From Chthonomonadales bacterium (GTDB lineage Bacteria > Armatimonadota > Chthonomonadetes > Chthonomonadales > CAJBBX01), in assembly GCA_049967475.1 (NCBI GenBank), contig JBMFSQ010000019.1, positions 2,679-66,678 on the forward strand: 64,000 nt of DNA, in the 5' to 3' direction. The notes beneath the pieces were generated by a model, which worked only from the letters and a program-made list of their open reading frames with translations, made no database searches and was not told where the DNA came from. The position numbers were made by a program, and so were the translations under genes. Below, in pieces: positions 57,963 to 63,623 of this stretch. Position 1 is the stretch's first letter; the number at the start of each line of letters is the position of its first letter.

Positions 57963-58589
57963 ATGGACGATCCCGGGGAGCAGCCACACCGAGCTTTTTG
58001 GTCCGGCCTAAAGAAGAAGCTTCAGGAGGCCGTGGCCAAGCAAGAGGCTGCCATCGTCCTCGGCAAAGTCGCCGGCAAGACGGTGACGGACGATGAGGGC
58101 CGCGTCATTGTAGAAGCCGGCCATGTTATAGATGAGCGCTCGGTGGAACACGCGGCCAAATCCGGCAAGCTCCATGCCCTCGCCGCTGCTGCAGCCACCG
58201 CATTGGCGCAGGATCTCAAAGAGAAGGCCCAAGAAACGTATATCCGCACGGACGAGGGCCGCGAAGCGCGATCCTTGGACACTGTAGAAGACGCTCTGCA
58301 GGCCCGGGCCTTCCTCGGGCGGGTGCTTTCCACAGACGTTACAGACATTCGAGGAAACGTAATCGTTCCTGCCGGGAAGCCCCTGGAAGAAGCCGATATA
58401 CGCGCCGCCCGGGAGGCCGGGCAGTTGCAGGCCCTAATCTACGTTGCGAAGCAGTCGCCCTCCGGCAGCCGTCTCGCTCAACCATCCTCCAGCCCTTCGG
58501 CTCAGAAAACTCCTTCACACCAATCGCCGCCTGAGCCCCCGAAGCCCCTGCCGCTTGTGTTGCCTCCGAAGGATCCCCACCAGCCGTAG
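57963..58589 (+). CDS. Hypothetical protein with an internal duplication and Pro-rich tail
   Basis: Two similar modules of about 40 aa: LGKVAGKTVTDDEGRVIVEAGHVIDERSVEHAAKSGKLHAL and LGRVLSTDVTDIRGNVIVPAGKPLEEADIRAAREAGQLQAL. The C-terminus is Ser/Pro-rich. Confidence 0.5.
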   Translation: MDDPGEQPHRAFWSGLKKKLQEAVAKQEAAIVLGKVAGKTVTDDEGRVIVEAGHVIDERSVEHAAKSGKLHALAAAAATALAQDLKEKAQETYIRTDEGREARSLDTVEDALQARAFLGRVLSTDVTDIRGNVIVPAGKPLEEADIRAAREAGQLQALIYVAKQSPSGSRLAQPSSSPSAQKTPSHQSPPEPPKPLPLVLPPKDPHQP

Positions 58590-58941
58590 GGGAGACGTCT
58601 GGACGCCCTCGCTCCGGCCAGGTGATTCCCTTATCCGTTCGCGTGCCGCGGCCATGCATCCCTGTGTCCCGGAGCCGGCGCGGCGACGCATCCGCTGCGG
58701 CTCCTGAACCGCACCCGGCACCCACGCTACTCTTGGCCGATCCGTCCCCTCGCCATGCCGCCCTACCCGCCGTCGCAGGATCCATTCCGAAGCGGCCGGC
58801 AGCGCCCTCCGAATTTCCTGAAAACGTTGGGCAAAGGCTTTCCGGTTTCGCGTCACCCGTGCGATTATCCTAGCGAGCGGTGTGAAACATGAGGCGCCGC
58901 TACACCCATGGCCAGGGATGCCGAGTGGGGAGTGCAAGTTA

Positions 58942-60357
58942 ATGAAGAGCCGGTTTGTAATCGGGATCATGTTCGTCGCCCTCAACGGCTTTGTGCCCAA
59001 GGTCTCGGCCCAGACGCAACTGGAAGTGGCCGCTAAGCTAACGCATTGGCTGACCCACTCACTCGCCGAGCAACATGCAGACGTGGAGCACGGCCGCTTC
59101 TCGTGGGCCGTGGGGATCTTCACCGGCAACATGTACAAGGATCCCCTTCGCGCGGAAGCGATGCGCTGGGTGTTCTCCGTTTGGCTCAACCGCGTTGCTG
59201 CCGAGGGTGACAGGGTAGTCGTAGCCGGTTTCGAGCAGGACGTTGGGAAACGATCCCACGTGATCGAGCTGAAGCACGGGGCCGACAGCCTGCAGGAGGT
59301 ATTCGATGCCCTTCCTTCCTCGCCGATGCCGGGATCCGTGGGTGGAAAGAATATCGAGCGGGCCATGGCCGGTCTCGCTGACAAGCTCCGGAATGATCCG
59401 GAGAGACGGCGTGTGATCCTTCTTCTGTCCAACGGCCCCTCGCAAACCGTCGAATCCACCGTGGACTGGACGTCCAGGCTCGTGTCGGCCGGATATGGGC
59501 ATCCTGTCCATACCATCTTCCAGATCCCGATCCATTCGACCCGCCAAGAGGTGCATGTTTTCCTGGCGGTGCAGCAGAATGGCGTGTCTTCTGTGCACAA
59601 CGGTGCGAGGCTTCCCGCCGCTCCCAATGGAGTGTGGGTTCCCGAAGGATATGCTCCTGAGGCCGCGACAGCATCCCTGTCGGCGTCCGGATTGCCGGGA
59701 AGAGTACCTCCAAAGCGGCATGGCAGTTGGCTCGGCATCATTCTGGGGATGGCGGTCGTCGTTATCGCTGTGTTGGCCGGAGCGCTTTTTGCTCTGGAGA
59801 TGAAAGGAAGGGGGCTCAAATCTCGTTTGCCTAACGCCGGCGCGCCGACCACTTCATCGGAGGATGGCCATAACTCTGTCGCCCGATTGGAAGCAGCGCT
59901 AGAGAGACTGGAGGGCGGCATCCGCAAATTGGAAGCCGGGCCAGCATCGGGGGGAAGCGCGGCAATTCCCGCCGTCCCGAACCAAGAGATGAGCGAACTC
60001 CGCACAAAGGCTGAGGCTCTGCGATTGAAGCTCCAAGACTGGGACGATACCGCCATGCAGTACCTGGACGCGGTACAGCGCGCGCTATCCATGCAGGGGA
60101 TTACCGACGAGCGGCGGAACGCATGGATGAAAGCAGGAGCGAACTTCGCGCGCTTTGCAGCGCAAAACGGGTTCGACGTCATCGCGCCGAACCCGGGCGA
60201 GCCGTTTATACAAGGGCACCACAAAGCCGTCAATGGAATGCCCGGGACCGGAGCCTGCGTTGTTCGTTGTATCCACTGGGGCTATCGTCGAGAAAACCAC
60301 GTTTATAGGCCGGCCGAGGTCGAAGCCGCCCCGCCACCAGAACGAGGAGAGGTTTAG
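58942..60357 (+). CDS. Membrane protein: signal peptide + vWA-like ectodomain + TM + coiled coil + GrpE-like C-terminal domain
   Basis: ATG at 58942 gives MKSRFVIGIMFVALNGFVPKVSAQ. The ectodomain has a vWA-like strand/helix pattern lacking MIDAS residues. The TM helix is WLGIILGMAVVVIAVLAGALFAL. The C-terminus GFDVIAPNPGEPFIQGHHKAV...WGYRRENHVYRPAEVE fits the GrpE beta-domain hallmark. The stop lies 2 nt before the Hsp70 start. Confidence 0.65.
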   Translation: MKSRFVIGIMFVALNGFVPKVSAQTQLEVAAKLTHWLTHSLAEQHADVEHGRFSWAVGIFTGNMYKDPLRAEAMRWVFSVWLNRVAAEGDRVVVAGFEQDVGKRSHVIELKHGADSLQEVFDALPSSPMPGSVGGKNIERAMAGLADKLRNDPERRRVILLLSNGPSQTVESTVDWTSRLVSAGYGHPVHTIFQIPIHSTRQEVHVFLAVQQNGVSSVHNGARLPAAPNGVWVPEGYAPEAATASLSASGLPGRVPPKRHGSWLGIILGMAVVVIAVLAGALFALEMKGRGLKSRLPNAGAPTTSSEDGHNSVARLEAALERLEGGIRKLEAGPASGGSAAIPAVPNQEMSELRTKAEALRLKLQDWDDTAMQYLDAVQRALSMQGITDERRNAWMKAGANFARFAAQNGFDVIAPNPGEPFIQGHHKAVNGMPGTGACVVRCIHWGYRRENHVYRPAEVEAAPPPERGEV

Positions 60358-60359
60358 CA

Positions 60360-62084
60360 ATGGAACATCCACCCATCGGAATAGACTTAGGTACATCCAC
60401 TTCAATCATCTGCGCATTCTTAGACGGACAGCCGGTTCCGATACCGGACCCTTACAGCGGGTCACCTATCGTGCCATCCGTGGTAGGGCTGAACCGCAGT
60501 GGCGAGTTGCTTGTCGGCAAGCGAGCGGTTGACCGAGGAGCAGAACCCCTAGTACGCGAAAGCAAGCGGATGATGGGGCATGTGGCATCTTTCCGCATCG
60601 GGGACAAAGACTACTCGCCCGAAGAGATCGCAGCTATCATTCTGCGGCACCTCAAGCATAACGCCGAGATCTTTCTCTCCACCGAGATCCGGGACGTGGT
60701 CATCTCCGTGCCGGCCAACTTCGAGGACACGCGCCGGCGTGCCACCGTAACGGCCGCCGAAATGGCGGGGCTTCATGTAGTGCGCCTCATCAATGAGCCA
60801 ACTGCTGCCGCCATTGCCTACGGGATCAACCGCCTCGACACGGGGGAGACTTTGTTGGTGTATGACTTCGGCGGCGGCACCCTGGACGTGTCCATCGTGG
60901 AAGCTATAGGGGGCGTGCTGGACGTCAAGACCTCCTACGGCGTGGCCGAATTGGGAGGCAAGGACTTCGATGAGGCGCTCTGCGTCTGGGCCAGGGGAGA
61001 ATTCATGGACCAGCATCCGGGGGCTGAATTAGTCGAAAGCGCTTTTGTAGACATCAAAAAGATCTGTGAAGATGTTAAAAAGGAATTAACATCGGTCCAA
61101 ACTTCTGAGATCGAATGCCTGAACGTTGCATCATACGGTGGTGAAGAACTGGACCTCAAACTGCCAGTCACCCGCGACAAATTCAACGAACTCGTGCGGC
61201 CATTGGTAGCGCAGTCCCTGCAGGCGATCAACTCGGCCCTGGACAAAGCCGGCATGAACCTCAGCGATATTACGAAGTTGGTGCTGGTGGGCGGAACCAC
61301 CCATATTCCGTACGTACGCGCTGCCGTATCGGAGCACACCGGCCTTACTCCAGCGCCGGGATGTGAACCAGATTTGGCCGTGGCCCAGGGGGCGGCGATT
61401 GACGCGGCCCGCGCAGCCGACGCCCCAGGAACGGACCAGATTATGGTGCAGGATGTGTGCACCTACGGCCTCGGCATCCTGTCCGTTCAGTACGTTCATG
61501 GACGCATGATGCTCGCTTACGATCCCCTCATCGAAAAGAACACTCCGATCCCGTTCACAGTCACCCGGGATCATTACCGCTTGCTGAGGCCGAACCAGGA
61601 AGTCATGGAAATCGAGGTAGTCCAGGATCTGCAAGGAGGCGCTGTCCTTCCCGAGGACACGGTGGGGACGGGGGCTTCCGGCACCATCGAAAACATTCCA
61701 CCTTCCCCATCGGGCGAACCCCACCAGGTCCGCGTGGACTTCACTTACGACGTGAACGGCATCGTCACCCTCAAGGCATCCATACCGGCCACCCGCCAGG
61801 AACTCACGATCCACACGCGCCCCTACCAAGGTTTGCTTACCCCAGAGCAAGCCCTCGAAGCCACGCGCAATCTGAACACGCTGTGGAGTACGGCGCCTCT
61901 CGCATATCTTTACCAAGGTCTCATTCAAACTGCAGAGAATGTTTTGCGGAATTCTCCCGACGGCGCGGAAGCTATCGGACGACGCGTCGCCGAGTTGAAA
62001 GCCAAGATCTCGATGAATGACCGGGATGGAGCCGATGCAGCTGCAGCGGACCTCCGCCGGCTCCTCGACGAACAACGAGAGTAA
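60360..62084 (+). CDS. Hsp70-family chaperone, HscC-like (short-lid, 574 aa)
   Basis: NBD motifs IGIDLGTSTS, VISVPANF, LINEPTAAAIAYG, VYDFGGGTLDVS and LVGGTTHIPYV, followed by a beta-sandwich SBD and a short helical lid. Confidence 0.9.
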   Translation: MEHPPIGIDLGTSTSIICAFLDGQPVPIPDPYSGSPIVPSVVGLNRSGELLVGKRAVDRGAEPLVRESKRMMGHVASFRIGDKDYSPEEIAAIILRHLKHNAEIFLSTEIRDVVISVPANFEDTRRRATVTAAEMAGLHVVRLINEPTAAAIAYGINRLDTGETLLVYDFGGGTLDVSIVEAIGGVLDVKTSYGVAELGGKDFDEALCVWARGEFMDQHPGAELVESAFVDIKKICEDVKKELTSVQTSEIECLNVASYGGEELDLKLPVTRDKFNELVRPLVAQSLQAINSALDKAGMNLSDITKLVLVGGTTHIPYVRAAVSEHTGLTPAPGCEPDLAVAQGAAIDAARAADAPGTDQIMVQDVCTYGLGILSVQYVHGRMMLAYDPLIEKNTPIPFTVTRDHYRLLRPNQEVMEIEVVQDLQGGAVLPEDTVGTGASGTIENIPPSPSGEPHQVRVDFTYDVNGIVTLKASIPATRQELTIHTRPYQGLLTPEQALEATRNLNTLWSTAPLAYLYQGLIQTAENVLRNSPDGAEAIGRRVAELKAKISMNDRDGADAAAADLRRLLDEQRE

Positions 62085-62088
62085 CGCG

Positions 62089-62679
62089 ATGGACACTGAT
62101 CCCTACACTGTTTTGGGAGTGCCGCGCGACGCGACACCTCTCCAGATCAAGGAAGCGTGGGCCCGCAAAGTGCGGGAGCATCCTCCGGACCGGGATCCGA
62201 TAGCGAACCAGCGCATCAATGAGGCCAAGCGGCTCCTCTTAGACGGAGACATCCGTGCCCGTGTGGACGCGCTGCTGGATCACGGTGAGGGGATGCCTGT
62301 GACTGAGCCGCACGAGCCCGCGACGGCAATTTCCCGCTCGCTTGGGCCGAGCGCAGCTCCCAGCCCTGCTGCTGCAGCGGATCCGGTCCCTGCGTTAAAC
62401 CCGGCTTCGGGCGGTGCATCGGCCAACAGCGTAGAGAACACTGGGAACGGGCCGACCAGCATCCAACGCACAGTGCCGGCTGGATCCCAATCGGAACCAG
62501 CCAATGCGCAAGTCACAGCTGCGCCGGATGCAGCAGCCATCATCGGATGCATTGTTGGAGCCCTCATCATGATGTTTTTCGTGATCCCGTTGCTCACCGC
62601 GGTAGGCCCCATCGGCTGGGCCGTTCTCCTCTTCGTGGGGTGGATGGCCGCGAAATCGGCCGATAAACAATCTAAGTAA
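62089..62679 (+). CDS. Membrane-anchored J-like domain protein (HPPD instead of HPD)
   Basis: From the ATG at 62089: DPYTVLGVPRDATPLQIKEAWARKVREHPPDRDP...INEAKRLLLD (J-domain helices I-III), a Pro/Ala/Ser linker, and a C-terminal hydrophobic hairpin AAIIGCIVGALIMMFFVIPLLTAVGPIGWAVLLFVGWMAA. Confidence 0.7.
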   Translation: MDTDPYTVLGVPRDATPLQIKEAWARKVREHPPDRDPIANQRINEAKRLLLDGDIRARVDALLDHGEGMPVTEPHEPATAISRSLGPSAAPSPAAAADPVPALNPASGGASANSVENTGNGPTSIQRTVPAGSQSEPANAQVTAAPDAAAIIGCIVGALIMMFFVIPLLTAVGPIGWAVLLFVGWMAAKSADKQSK

Positions 62680-62855
62680 AACCTGCCATAGGGTACGCGC
62701 CGGCGCTGCGTCAGTAGCGCATGGCCACCAACCCCACACCCTTAAGGTACGTGGCGCTGGTGGTGCTGCGATTCTCGCTGACCAATGCGCAAATCGAATG
62801 TGCGGTTGGTGAGATCCGTAACGGGGCGACAGAACCGATGCCCAGAATCGCGGCT

Positions 62856-63623
62856 CTACCCAGGGCCTGTTAGCCGCGCCAAAAGGCTCTTGGCATCCCC
62901 AATCACGCCGGGGTGGTTATCCTCGGCCAATAGTTTGCGTACCGCGGACACAACATAATCGCGGTCCTCCTCCCGGATGTCCGGCGGTTCGATTGAGTTG
63001 ACCACATTACAGCGTACGAGGGGGTCAGGGTGACGCAACATCTCGACCAGCTGCTCTATTCTGGCACGATCCCCGAGGCAGTACAACGCGTAGACCAAGC
63101 CCACGCAAGCAATGGGGCTTAGCTCCCGATTGAGTGCCGACACCAACTCCTGTGCCAGCGACGGCCCCATCTGATGCCGGGATATAGCAATGGCCGCATC
63201 GCGCCGAACCACTGGGTTAGGGTCCCGCAACACCATGGAGCGAAGCACTGCAAGGGTCCTATGCCCGCCAACCCGCAGGAGCCCTGGTATGGCATCCGTG
63301 CGAACAGACCAATCCGGATCCTGCGCGGCCGCAATGAACCGGCCGAGATCCACTGAAGACCCTACCTCAGCGAGAGTAGCTACAGCCGTGCTTCTCACAA
63401 ACGGGCGCGGGTCGGTGACCAGTGCGCGCGCGGCGACCGCGGCGAGCCAACCGCCCACGTCCCTCAACGCGCTCATCGCACATTCCCGCACAGTCGGCGA
63501 CTGATCGGCCACGAAGCGCAACAGCGCAAGTGCCGCCTTCTCATCCTCGGCAGCACGCAGTTTTCTCACCGTGTTGCACCGCTCAGTTACGTTCATACGC
63601 CGCGCCCTCATAAGTGAAGACAC
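62856..63623 (-). CDS. HEAT (PBS-lyase type) repeat protein
   Basis: Five or more repeats of D-P-x-x-x-VR-x-x-A: DQSPTVRECAMSAL, DPRPFVRSTAVATL, DPDWSVRTDAIPGL, DPNPVVRRDAAIAI, HPDPLVRCNVVNSI. The start is uncertain (M1, M5 or M10). Confidence 0.65.
   Translation of the reverse strand: MSSLMRARRMNVTERCNTVRKLRAAEDEKAALALLRFVADQSPTVRECAMSALRDVGGWLAAVAARALVTDPRPFVRSTAVATLAEVGSSVDLGRFIAAAQDPDWSVRTDAIPGLLRVGGHRTLAVLRSMVLRDPNPVVRRDAAIAISRHQMGPSLAQELVSALNRELSPIACVGLVYALYCLGDRARIEQLVEMLRHPDPLVRCNVVNSIEPPDIREEDRDYVVSAVRKLLAEDNHPGVIGDAKSLLARLTGPG

Follow-up and report, generated by a model that had tools for sequence, protein, structure and literature searches.

The locus and its three genes

The window analysed here, a stretch of 64,000 nucleotides from a Chthonomonadales bacterium (phylum Armatimonadota; contig JBMFSQ010000019.1 of assembly GCA_049967475.1, positions 2,679 to 66,678), contains three co-directional open reading frames (ORFs) that encode a protein with a signal peptide, an ectodomain, a transmembrane (TM) helix and a GrpE-homologous region (gene 1), an HscC-type Hsp70 (gene 2) and a J-like protein with a C-terminal membrane anchor (gene 3). 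The architecture of this triad is real and conserved, and it is apparently undescribed. An initial annotation made from the nucleotide sequence had placed three nearly abutting genes here, in agreement with the ORF list, in which gaps of only 2 nt (genes 1 and 2) and 4 nt (genes 2 and 3) separate them (Table 1).

Upstream alternative starts exist for gene 1 (GTG at 58882) and for gene 3 (ATG at 62017). We prefer the starts at 58942 and 62089, since gene 1 is then matched over its full length by a hypothetical protein deposited at NCBI from a Chthonomonadales metagenome-assembled genome (MAG) (P0001; 100% identity, 100% coverage, 471 aa) and since the N-termini of orthologues are equivalent. 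Purine-rich stretches resembling ribosome-binding sites precede gene 1 (GGGGAG) and gene 2 (GAGGAG), and a weak one precedes gene 3 (GAGAG). The GC content of the triad is uniform with the remaining window, and a promoter and terminator scan of 58400-63000 gave nothing exceeding shuffled expectation.

The hydropathy profile of gene 1 comprises an N-terminal signal-like segment that ends in VSA before a glutamine and one strong TM segment at residues ~262-285, followed by KGRGLKSR. A signal peptide-like N-terminus and an invariant glutamine at the predicted cleavage site recur in all 12 of the closest relatives. A signal peptide-like N-terminus combined with a single TM segment places the N-terminal domain outside the membrane and the C-terminus inside. 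Thus, hydropathy and relatives agree with the signal peptide, single TM helix and KGRGLKSR stretch proposed initially, and they put the GrpE part in the cytoplasm.

What lies in the cytoplasm had been taken for GrpE on the basis of its β-domain, and the match turns out to span the whole of GrpE. The AlphaFold2 (AF2) model of gene 1, built from a 50-sequence alignment, has a mean predicted local distance difference test score (pLDDT) of 86 and contains the GrpE fold, with its long N-terminal helix, helical bundle and C-terminal β-domain. Its top Foldseek matches in the PDB are the GrpE proteins of T. thermophilus (3a6m, E=2e-5) and of E. coli (1dkg_A, in complex with DnaK, E=7e-5), along with human GrpEL1 (9bls, E=8e-4), all three with probability 1.0 and over ~170 columns, enough to take in the β-domain together with the bundle and the long helix. 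Sequence profiles give a fainter signal: Pfam GrpE (PF01025) matches residues 365-461 with its positions 61-162 of 165 (E=3e-4), at 20.9 bits and hence under the gathering score of 25.8; the NCBIfam GrpE models match weakly, and the GrpE matches of a PDB sequence profile are marginal (E ~0.3). The signal strengthens in relatives, since P0010, a full-length protein of the same architecture, reaches 26.9 bits and exceeds the gathering score, and 26 of the 78 members of the alignment scanned (A4, including 27 proteins of the fused type) match Pfam GrpE, the best of them at E=7e-15.

A word-indexed homologue search returned just three proteins with the single query and four with the 50-sequence alignment. 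We used instead an exhaustive profile search over 1.84 billion representatives, which recovered 277 relatives of gene 1 at E<=1e-3. Among the best 150 of these 277, which were classified, 30 carry both domains in the architecture found in the window, 51 consist of ectodomain and TM segment with a different cytoplasmic tail, and 69 have the GrpE-like part alone, often behind two TM helices; members of this last class match Pfam GrpE at ~1e-10. Nearly all relatives are metagenome singletons in the cluster records, where one is named 'molecular chaperone GrpE' by IMG. Aligned with E. coli GrpE, the family keeps an ENLRRR-type helix, the LxxVxxxLxRAL stretch that includes R104, and the two β-domain motifs G(F/V)xxIxPxGxPFxxxxHxA and GYxxxxxxxRxAxVxV, which are the best-conserved part of gene 1. 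Judged by alignment and predicted fold, the C-terminal third of gene 1 is a genuine but divergent GrpE.

Gene 2 was expected to be an Hsp70 with intact nucleotide-binding domain (NBD) motifs and a short lid, and this is borne out by a Pfam HSP70 match at E=3e-102 and by the catalytic residues D8, K70, E171, D194, T199 and D201, all of which are kept. Since the J-domain-contact residues R167 and N170 and the terminal aspartate of the linker are also retained, gene 2 looks competent as an Hsp70 as far as such residues can tell. HscC-type Hsp70s are distinguished by a length of 550-580 aa, a deletion of DnaK residues 76-101, a second deletion at 209-212, an insertion in loop L1,2 of the β-subdomain of the substrate-binding domain (SBDβ) and a short lid (PMC8215388, Mayer 2021). 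An alignment with DnaK, HscA and HscC of E. coli reveals all four of these indels in gene 2, that is, the 76-101 deletion with the same boundaries as in HscC, the 209-212 deletion (near D211), the SBDβ L1,2 insertion and the shortened lid, and its 574 aa fall within the HscC-type range. The resemblance to HscC proposed initially thus holds for indels and length, but does not extend to overall identity: gene 2 is 32-33% identical to each of the three proteins and no closer to HscC than to DnaK or HscA. The same is true of its counterparts in related loci (the cassette Hsp70s, see below), which are ~31-34% identical to each of E. coli DnaK, HscA and HscC, but 37-72% identical to one another, and which, by this comparison, are a group of their own. 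The NCBIfam DnaK score of gene 2 is 336 against a cut-off of 822, and gene 2 lies far under every NCBIfam DnaK or HscA cut-off. A housekeeping DnaK operon was considered and rejected, because all three proteins of the triad are far below the equivalog cut-offs.

Gene 3 combines a J domain (Pfam DnaJ, 31.1 bits against a gathering score of 27.8) with a low-complexity linker of Pro, Ala and Ser and a hydrophobic C-terminus of ~50 residues that forms two helices by hydropathy, as the initial annotation had it. The TM segment of gene 1 and the C-terminal hairpin of gene 3 are both evident from hydropathy, and the paired membrane tethering proposed for the two proteins therefore stands for the window. 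Orthologues of gene 3 are considerably longer (430-500 aa), with a middle rich in tetratricopeptide repeats (TPR) and a homologous C-terminal anchor that has a GP(I/V)GW turn. In the window protein the J domain and the homologous anchor are kept while the linker stands in place of the TPR part, which, from this comparison, gene 3 has lost.

Table 1. Coordinates of the triad genes and of the features assigned to them.
Feature	Coordinates	Strand	Basis
Gene 1: signal peptide/ectodomain/TM/GrpE-homologous protein, 471 aa	58942..60357	+	ORF; identical to P0001; AF2 model, pLDDT 86
Signal peptide, residues 1-23, ending VSA before Q24	58942..59010	+	Hydropathy; signal peptide-like N-terminus and invariant Q24 in 12 relatives
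Extracytoplasmic α/β ectodomain, residues ~24-260, weakly vWA-like, without MIDAS (abbreviations in text)	59011..59721	+	Domain model; Foldseek
Single TM helix, residues ~262-285, then KGRGLKSR	59725..59796	+	Hydropathy; helix 263-289 in model
Cytoplasmic GrpE-homologous region, residues ~308-463 (long helices, bundle, β-domain)	59863..60330	+	Foldseek, Pfam, alignment
Gene 2: HscC-type Hsp70, 574 aa (NBD, linker, SBDβ, short lid)	60360..62084	+	Pfam HSP70; conserved residues; indels
Gene 3: J-like protein, 196 aa	62089..62679	+	Pfam DnaJ, 31.1 bits
J domain, residues 1-65, HPPD replacing HPD	62089..62283	+	Pfam; motif comparison
C-terminal two-helix membrane anchor, residues ~141-190, GP(I/V)GW turn	62509..62658	+	Hydropathy; homologous anchor in the J protein of locus L002

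The three genes form a conserved, self-contained cassette

A search of species-representative genomes with alignment A5 found no relative, and the Hsp70 N-terminal motif [PA]IGIDLGTS was used instead, which yielded 80 loci that were then scanned locally with hidden Markov models (HMMs). In 39 of these 80 loci, the gene immediately 5' of the Hsp70 is GrpE-like, which gives the order GrpE-like, Hsp70, J(-TPR). Such an upstream gene is present in 31 of 32 cyanobacterial loci (mostly Nostocales), in two of three loci of Armatimonadota, the third being at a contig edge, and in six single MAGs of other phyla (whose loci were not counted), but in none of the 26 loci from Myxococcota and related bacteria.

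The version of the cassette that is headed by a fused ectodomain-GrpE gene has the same organisation. The order ectodomain-GrpE, Hsp70, J-TPR-TM is found in three close relatives with shared flanks (L001, L002, L003) and also in unrelated flanks (L011, L012), while the Armatimonadota loci L018 and L019 have the order ectodomain-GrpE, Hsp70, J. In shorter contigs (L005, L006, L010) the gene after ectodomain-GrpE is again the Hsp70, and P0065, a two-TM GrpE-like protein, heads the same triad in L008. Wherever DNA is available, then, an Hsp70 gene comes after the homologue of gene 1, with a J protein gene next if the contig is long enough, and the synteny called for initially is seen. Clustering of the flanking ORFs of 48 loci disclosed no conserved neighbour beyond the three cassette genes, which in the close relatives are flanked by transketolase, acyltransferase and ferredoxin genes. 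Taken together, the triad is a cassette that is conserved and self-contained. Among named genomes, the ectodomain is carried only by the Armatimonadota loci (L018, L019); it is also present on unassigned metagenome contigs. Elsewhere the GrpE partner is either soluble or anchored via two TM segments, and the ectodomain has been added to it in a particular lineage.

Considerable variation exists around this theme. The GrpE-like partner of the wider cassette is often soluble or has two TM segments, and the J protein of the window is atypical for the cassette. The GrpE-like/Hsp70/J-TPR triad is present in cyanobacteria (L021-L056), among them cultured members of Scytonema, Nostoc, Tolypothrix, Brasilonema and Nodularia. 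In many of these, the GrpE-like protein is a short and soluble coiled coil, and the J protein bears Y-S-P-E-K-D-P, a motif in which both the H and the D of HPD are replaced. In Myxococcota and related bacteria (L061-L097), many GIDLGTS Hsp70s are followed by a short J protein (~160-180 aa) with canonical HPD, without a GrpE-like gene, and these Hsp70-J pairs are a different two-gene module. In one metagenomic relative, two more J-TPR paralogues are encoded immediately 3' of the triad (L011:10323-12412, minus strand), suggesting that a single Hsp70 can work with several J proteins that select clients. The DnaK1/DnaJ3/GrpE type IV pilus system of N. punctiforme was not equated with the cassette, the two being set apart by description only; the study of that organism refers to a canonical grpE-dnaK1-dnaJ11 locus and to a single annotated GrpE homologue (PMC9239167).

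As to the immediate surroundings of the triad in the window, a 208-aa protein with a Pro-rich C-terminus and no family match is encoded directly 5' (57963-58589, plus strand). Its homologue keeps this position in the close relatives L001 and L002 and is missing from cassettes in other contexts, and it is probably not part of the cassette. On the 3' side, a convergent gene (62856-63623, minus strand) encodes a 255-aa HEAT-repeat protein with a weak NblB/CpcF-like match.

The ectodomain and its unfused relatives

The most unusual part of gene 1 is its ectodomain, for which a fold of the von Willebrand factor A (vWA) type had been proposed, with substituted residues at the metal ion-dependent adhesion site (MIDAS). 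Modelled on its own from a 78-sequence alignment (pLDDT 91, predicted template-modelling score (pTM) 0.86), it has the element order β1-α1-β2-β3-α2-α3-β4-α4-β5-β6, which fits the vWA order up to β5. Foldseek returns no match to this model at E<=1e-3, with template-modelling scores of at most 0.5, and those matches that combine a low root-mean-square deviation (rmsd) with a high probability are to vWA domains, with E ~4e-3 to 8e-3. These include CLCA1 (6pyx; 2.6 Å over 103 columns, probability 1.0), α2δ-1 (7vfs_B; E=4e-3), the MIDAS domain of MDN1 and Ku80, with 8ql1_C and 7nfc_B among the matches. A SAM-methyltransferase fold was rejected, since the corresponding Foldseek matches superpose at 9-11 Å with a probability of at most 0.5 and the domain is extracytoplasmic. 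In sequence, Pfam VWA does not match gene 1 of the window, VWA_3 matches three of 78 relatives at E of at least 0.019, and a PDB sequence profile with the ectodomain retrieves no vWA protein. On the model, the ectodomain is a Rossmann-like α/β domain, and it is plausibly a very divergent vWA domain. Of the initial proposal, then, the Rossmann-like fold stands and the low-rmsd matches point to vWA, but neither a Foldseek match at E<=1e-3 nor a Pfam VWA match backs the assignment.

The substitutions at the MIDAS positions are confirmed by the alignment. The DxSxS...T...D pattern is not present, its topologically equivalent positions being occupied by FTGNM, GGK and SNG in the window and by FSTGH, GGHD and xSQ in the family consensus. 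Nevertheless, a distinct set of residues is conserved: T61, D90, E98, G134 and G135 are invariant in all 78 relatives, D67, S167 and R223 are nearly so, as is S132 in alignment A2 of 50 sequences. By secondary-structure order, several of the conserved polar residues reside in loops that correspond to the MIDAS face, and we infer that the conserved set marks a putative binding site. The polar set spans relatives from two types of system, namely the cassette and the operons of the tubulin homologue FtsZl1.

In the latter operons the ectodomain and TM segment occur without a GrpE part, next to Tubulin_2 (FtsZl1) genes (P0030 in L007; P0028 in L098 and L099), and in a local domain search the homologues that adjoin Tubulin_2 reach E values down to 1e-32. 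A third relative, P0100, has an unrelated context. Two of the operons (L007:394-10334 and L098:2527-15432) encode, in order, an ~800-aa Hsp70-NBD-like ATPase, a protein with two GrpE domains, a zinc-ribbon protein, the ectodomain-plus-TM protein and Tubulin_2, followed only in L098 by a 688-aa protein and an OmpA-like protein. The two GrpE domains are recognised by Pfam GrpE in L098 (E=4e-16) and by the family HMM of this analysis in L007 (31 + 17 bits). The ~800-aa proteins, 29% identical between the two copies, have phosphate and adenosine motifs of the actin/Hsp70 type and match NCBIfam YegD-type models (E=1e-7), and the L098 copy has an N-terminal Pfam Zn_Ribbon_1 match (E=3.9e-5) and a weak HSP70 match (E=0.005). 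Since ectodomain, GrpE domain and an Hsp70-superfamily ATPase are associated in fused form in the window family and in unfused form in the FtsZl1 operons, the three have been linked twice. These observations match earlier descriptions, in which FtsZl1 operons encode OmpA proteins and a variety of vWA proteins that have a signal peptide or TM segments (Makarova & Koonin 2010, PMC2875224), and in which tubulin/HSP70 and HSP70-GrpE-DnaJ/TPR themes are noted (Kaur et al. 2020, PMC7159879). FtsZl1 systems may thus include GrpE domains and Hsp70-like ATPases as a rule, and the link offers a concrete hypothesis for operons that have been uncharacterised since 2010.

This context raises the question of whether the cassette is not concerned with proteostasis but is an NTPase-centred conflict or defence system such as Kaur et al. 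2020 have predicted. The GTPase-centred systems of that study include HSP70, GrpE and DnaJ/TPR proteins together with tubulin and extracellular-vWA themes (PMC7159879), and relatives of the ectodomain do occur in Tubulin_2 operons. In addition, toxin-antitoxin pairs (ParE/Phd and PIN/VapB) flank two cassettes (L008:11212-11766 and L012:10830-11440), which may be coincidental. However, no GAP1 GTPase, FNIII protein or effector gene adjoins the triad, the comparison of 48 loci shows no conserved neighbour beyond it, and the flanks in close relatives are of a housekeeping kind. In the window itself, the features of GAP1-N2/DO-GTPase systems (TRAFAC GTPase, FNIII-repeat protein, tubulin) are not linked to the triad, whose neighbours are the protein without a family match and the HEAT-repeat protein. 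PADLOC gives no meaningful match, with no model for genes 1 and 2 and only ZorF at E=0.11 for gene 3. We therefore regard a role in conflict or defence as highly improbable.

A proposed membrane-tethered Hsp70 machine and its relation to known systems

What could such a cassette do? By a modest margin of belief, we favour a dedicated Hsp70 machine that is tethered to the membrane, separate from housekeeping DnaK, and made up of an HscC-type Hsp70, a tail-anchored J-like cochaperone and a single-pass GrpE with an outer vWA-like domain. That the machine is specialised rather than housekeeping is suggested by the NCBIfam DnaK score of gene 2, so far from its cut-off, and by the separate grouping of the cassette Hsp70s. 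The tail-anchored J-like protein would bring the Hsp70 to the membrane on its cytoplasmic side, where the GrpE domain, presumably dimerised via its long helices, would drive or gate nucleotide exchange and hence client release on the adjacent Hsp70. Since the GrpE helices begin ~20 residues after the TM helix, the state of the ectodomain could set the geometry of the GrpE dimer, so that ligand, metal or partner binding, or oligomerisation, of the ectodomain might tune the chaperone cycle at the membrane. Clients would probably be membrane or envelope-associated proteins; in relatives, the J protein would pick them through its TPR region, which the window copy does without.

Several observations weigh against such a machine, or at least against parts of it. 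In gene 1, a 12-residue helix segment that contains K82 and F86 of E. coli GrpE is deleted, R183 is replaced by histidine and is variable across the family, and the linker that follows the TM helix is predicted to be disordered (AF2 pLDDT <50 at residues 291-305). R104, R183, V192, K82 and F86 count as DnaK-contact or hot-spot residues of E. coli GrpE; V192 is replaced by alanine or another hydrophobic residue in the family, and the partner Hsp70 is itself divergent. The cassette Hsp70s have for the most part no counterpart of K55/R56, which take part in the salt bridges of the nucleotide cleft. The J domain of gene 3 lacks the canonical HPD (the window motif is HPPD, that of the cassette at large [HY]-x-P-[DE]-[KR]-[DE]-P), and gene 3 also lacks the TPR region of ~250 residues that is present in all other ectodomain-type cassettes examined. 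Finally, membrane attachment is not general, since only about half of the cassettes have GrpE-like partners with TM segments, the rest looking soluble, and most cyanobacterial J proteins have no C-terminal TM segment by crude hydropathy.

Some of these deviations would also be expected if the GrpE fold had been reused as a tether that does not catalyse exchange, but offers the Hsp70, or some other actin-fold ATPase, a docking site at the membrane. The lost K55/R56 salt-bridge partners, the non-conserved hot-spot R183 and the deleted helix segment all fit such a role, as does the company that GrpE-domain proteins keep with NBD-only Hsp70-like ATPases in FtsZl1 operons. HscC-type Hsp70s are, moreover, thought to need no exchange factor, and the loss of cleft salt bridges in HscA and HscC accompanies fast intrinsic exchange that dispenses with one (PMC8215388). 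However, gene 1 preserves the GrpE architecture in full, with its pair of long helices, and is most strongly conserved in the β-domain motifs, and the cassette Hsp70 still has the subdomain IIB loop that HscA has lost. We consider a mere tether quite unlikely.

One extension of the membrane-tethered machine is that the Hsp70 cycle is controlled from outside the cytoplasm. In its full form, with a periplasmic vWA-like sensor acting via the TM helix on the GrpE dimerisation helices and a ligand or envelope partner gating exchange and client release on the membrane-recruited HscC-type Hsp70, this transmembrane control is a tentative proposal that we judge to be somewhat unlikely. Coupling could also run in reverse, the ATP cycle of the chaperone altering the conformation of the outer domain, by analogy with inside-out signalling of integrins. 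If transmembrane control were true, the FtsZl1 operons would embody this principle a second time with unfused proteins, an outer vWA-like module reaching a cytoplasmic Hsp70-type ATPase through GrpE.

A simpler scenario is that the ectodomain transmits no signal and serves as an anchor or scaffold that positions or oligomerises the exchange factor at an envelope site, for example a periplasmic protein or the cell wall, with exchange being constitutive there. Many cassettes have no ectodomain or no membrane anchor at all, vWA-type domains are typically protein-binding modules, and the disordered linker between TM segment and helix argues against rigid mechanical coupling. On the other hand, a polar set that is conserved over 78 relatives and two system types suggests a specific ligand or metal site rather than a generic anchor, and localisation and regulation can coexist. 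An ectodomain confined to anchoring thus also strikes us as doubtful, if conceivable. The arrangement as such could link the cell envelope to the cytoplasmic chaperone cycle.

A putative exchange factor that is an integral membrane protein is an exception among GrpE-type factors, and in one lineage it comes with an extracytoplasmic domain whose polar site is strictly conserved. As the initial annotation had supposed, the architecture of gene 1 corresponds to no characterised family or paper that we could find in Pfam, NCBIfam, PADLOC, the cluster records or a literature search. Searching the open-access literature for membrane-anchored, membrane-bound or transmembrane GrpE gave nothing relevant, absence there being no proof. 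To our knowledge, GrpE-type exchange factors have been described only in soluble form. The cassette is small, self-contained and present in culturable cyanobacteria (Scytonema, Nostoc, Tolypothrix), and it thereby makes 'dark matter' Hsp70 paralogues testable at a time when bacterial DnaK derivatives are called largely unexplored (PMC13580251).

With the canonical DnaK-DnaJ-GrpE system the cassette shares the three protein families, the gene order grpE-dnaK-dnaJ, a complete GrpE fold and the catalytic and R167/N170 residues. It differs in that the window proteins are far under the equivalog cut-offs, that the GrpE is inserted in the membrane and has an ectodomain, and that the J protein has neither the G/F region, zinc finger and client-binding C-terminal domains (CTDs) of DnaJ nor its HPD. 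Another precedent for the gene arrangement is Myxococcus xanthus, where GrpS (MXAN_6672), a paralogous GrpE, is encoded directly upstream of the specialised Hsp70 MxDnaK2/SglK (MXAN_6671) (PMC11019930). The cassette is similar in this pairing of genes. None of the 26 Myxococcota loci that the Hsp70 motif recovered has a GrpE-like neighbour. We know of no membrane anchor or ectodomain in M. xanthus GrpS.

Recruitment of an Hsp70 by a membrane-anchored J protein is familiar from the mitochondrial import motor, with mtHsp70, membrane-anchored Pam18 and Mge1, and from Sec63-BiP of the endoplasmic reticulum, and a GrpE-type factor cycles the Hsp70. These are functional analogies only, since Mge1 is soluble and the machines operate at a translocon, whereas no translocon gene is linked to the cassette. 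The FtsZl1 operons, by contrast, share with the window family the ectodomain-plus-TM module, GrpE domains and an Hsp70-NBD-like ATPase, and differ from it in having ectodomain and GrpE proteins as separate genes, an ATPase without a substrate-binding domain, and a tubulin homologue.

Of the systems described so far, E. coli HscC and its membrane-anchored J proteins, DjlC and DjlB, come closest to the cassette. The cassette Hsp70 has the size of HscC (550-580 aa), the same lobe I deletion (DnaK 76-101), the 209-212 deletion, the SBDβ L1,2 insertion and the short lid. DjlC resembles the cassette J protein, as read from sequence, in its N-terminal J domain, its hydrophobic C-terminal anchor and a non-canonical motif (HPETDP against HPP[DE]RDP), and it has been reported to stimulate HscC (PMC8215388). 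A homology of the J-TPR protein to E. coli DjlC beyond the J domain was rejected, since BLAST finds no similarity there. Among the differences are the identity to HscC of 32%, which is no higher than that to DnaK or HscA, and the IIB loop retained in the cassette Hsp70. The decisive one is that HscC works without a GrpE partner, whereas the cassette has a dedicated GrpE homologue as its first gene, here inserted in the membrane with an outer domain. Given that a dedicated GrpE homologue of an HscC-type Hsp70 is conserved from Armatimonadota to Nostocales, the view that such Hsp70s work without an exchange factor needs to be revisited for this branch.

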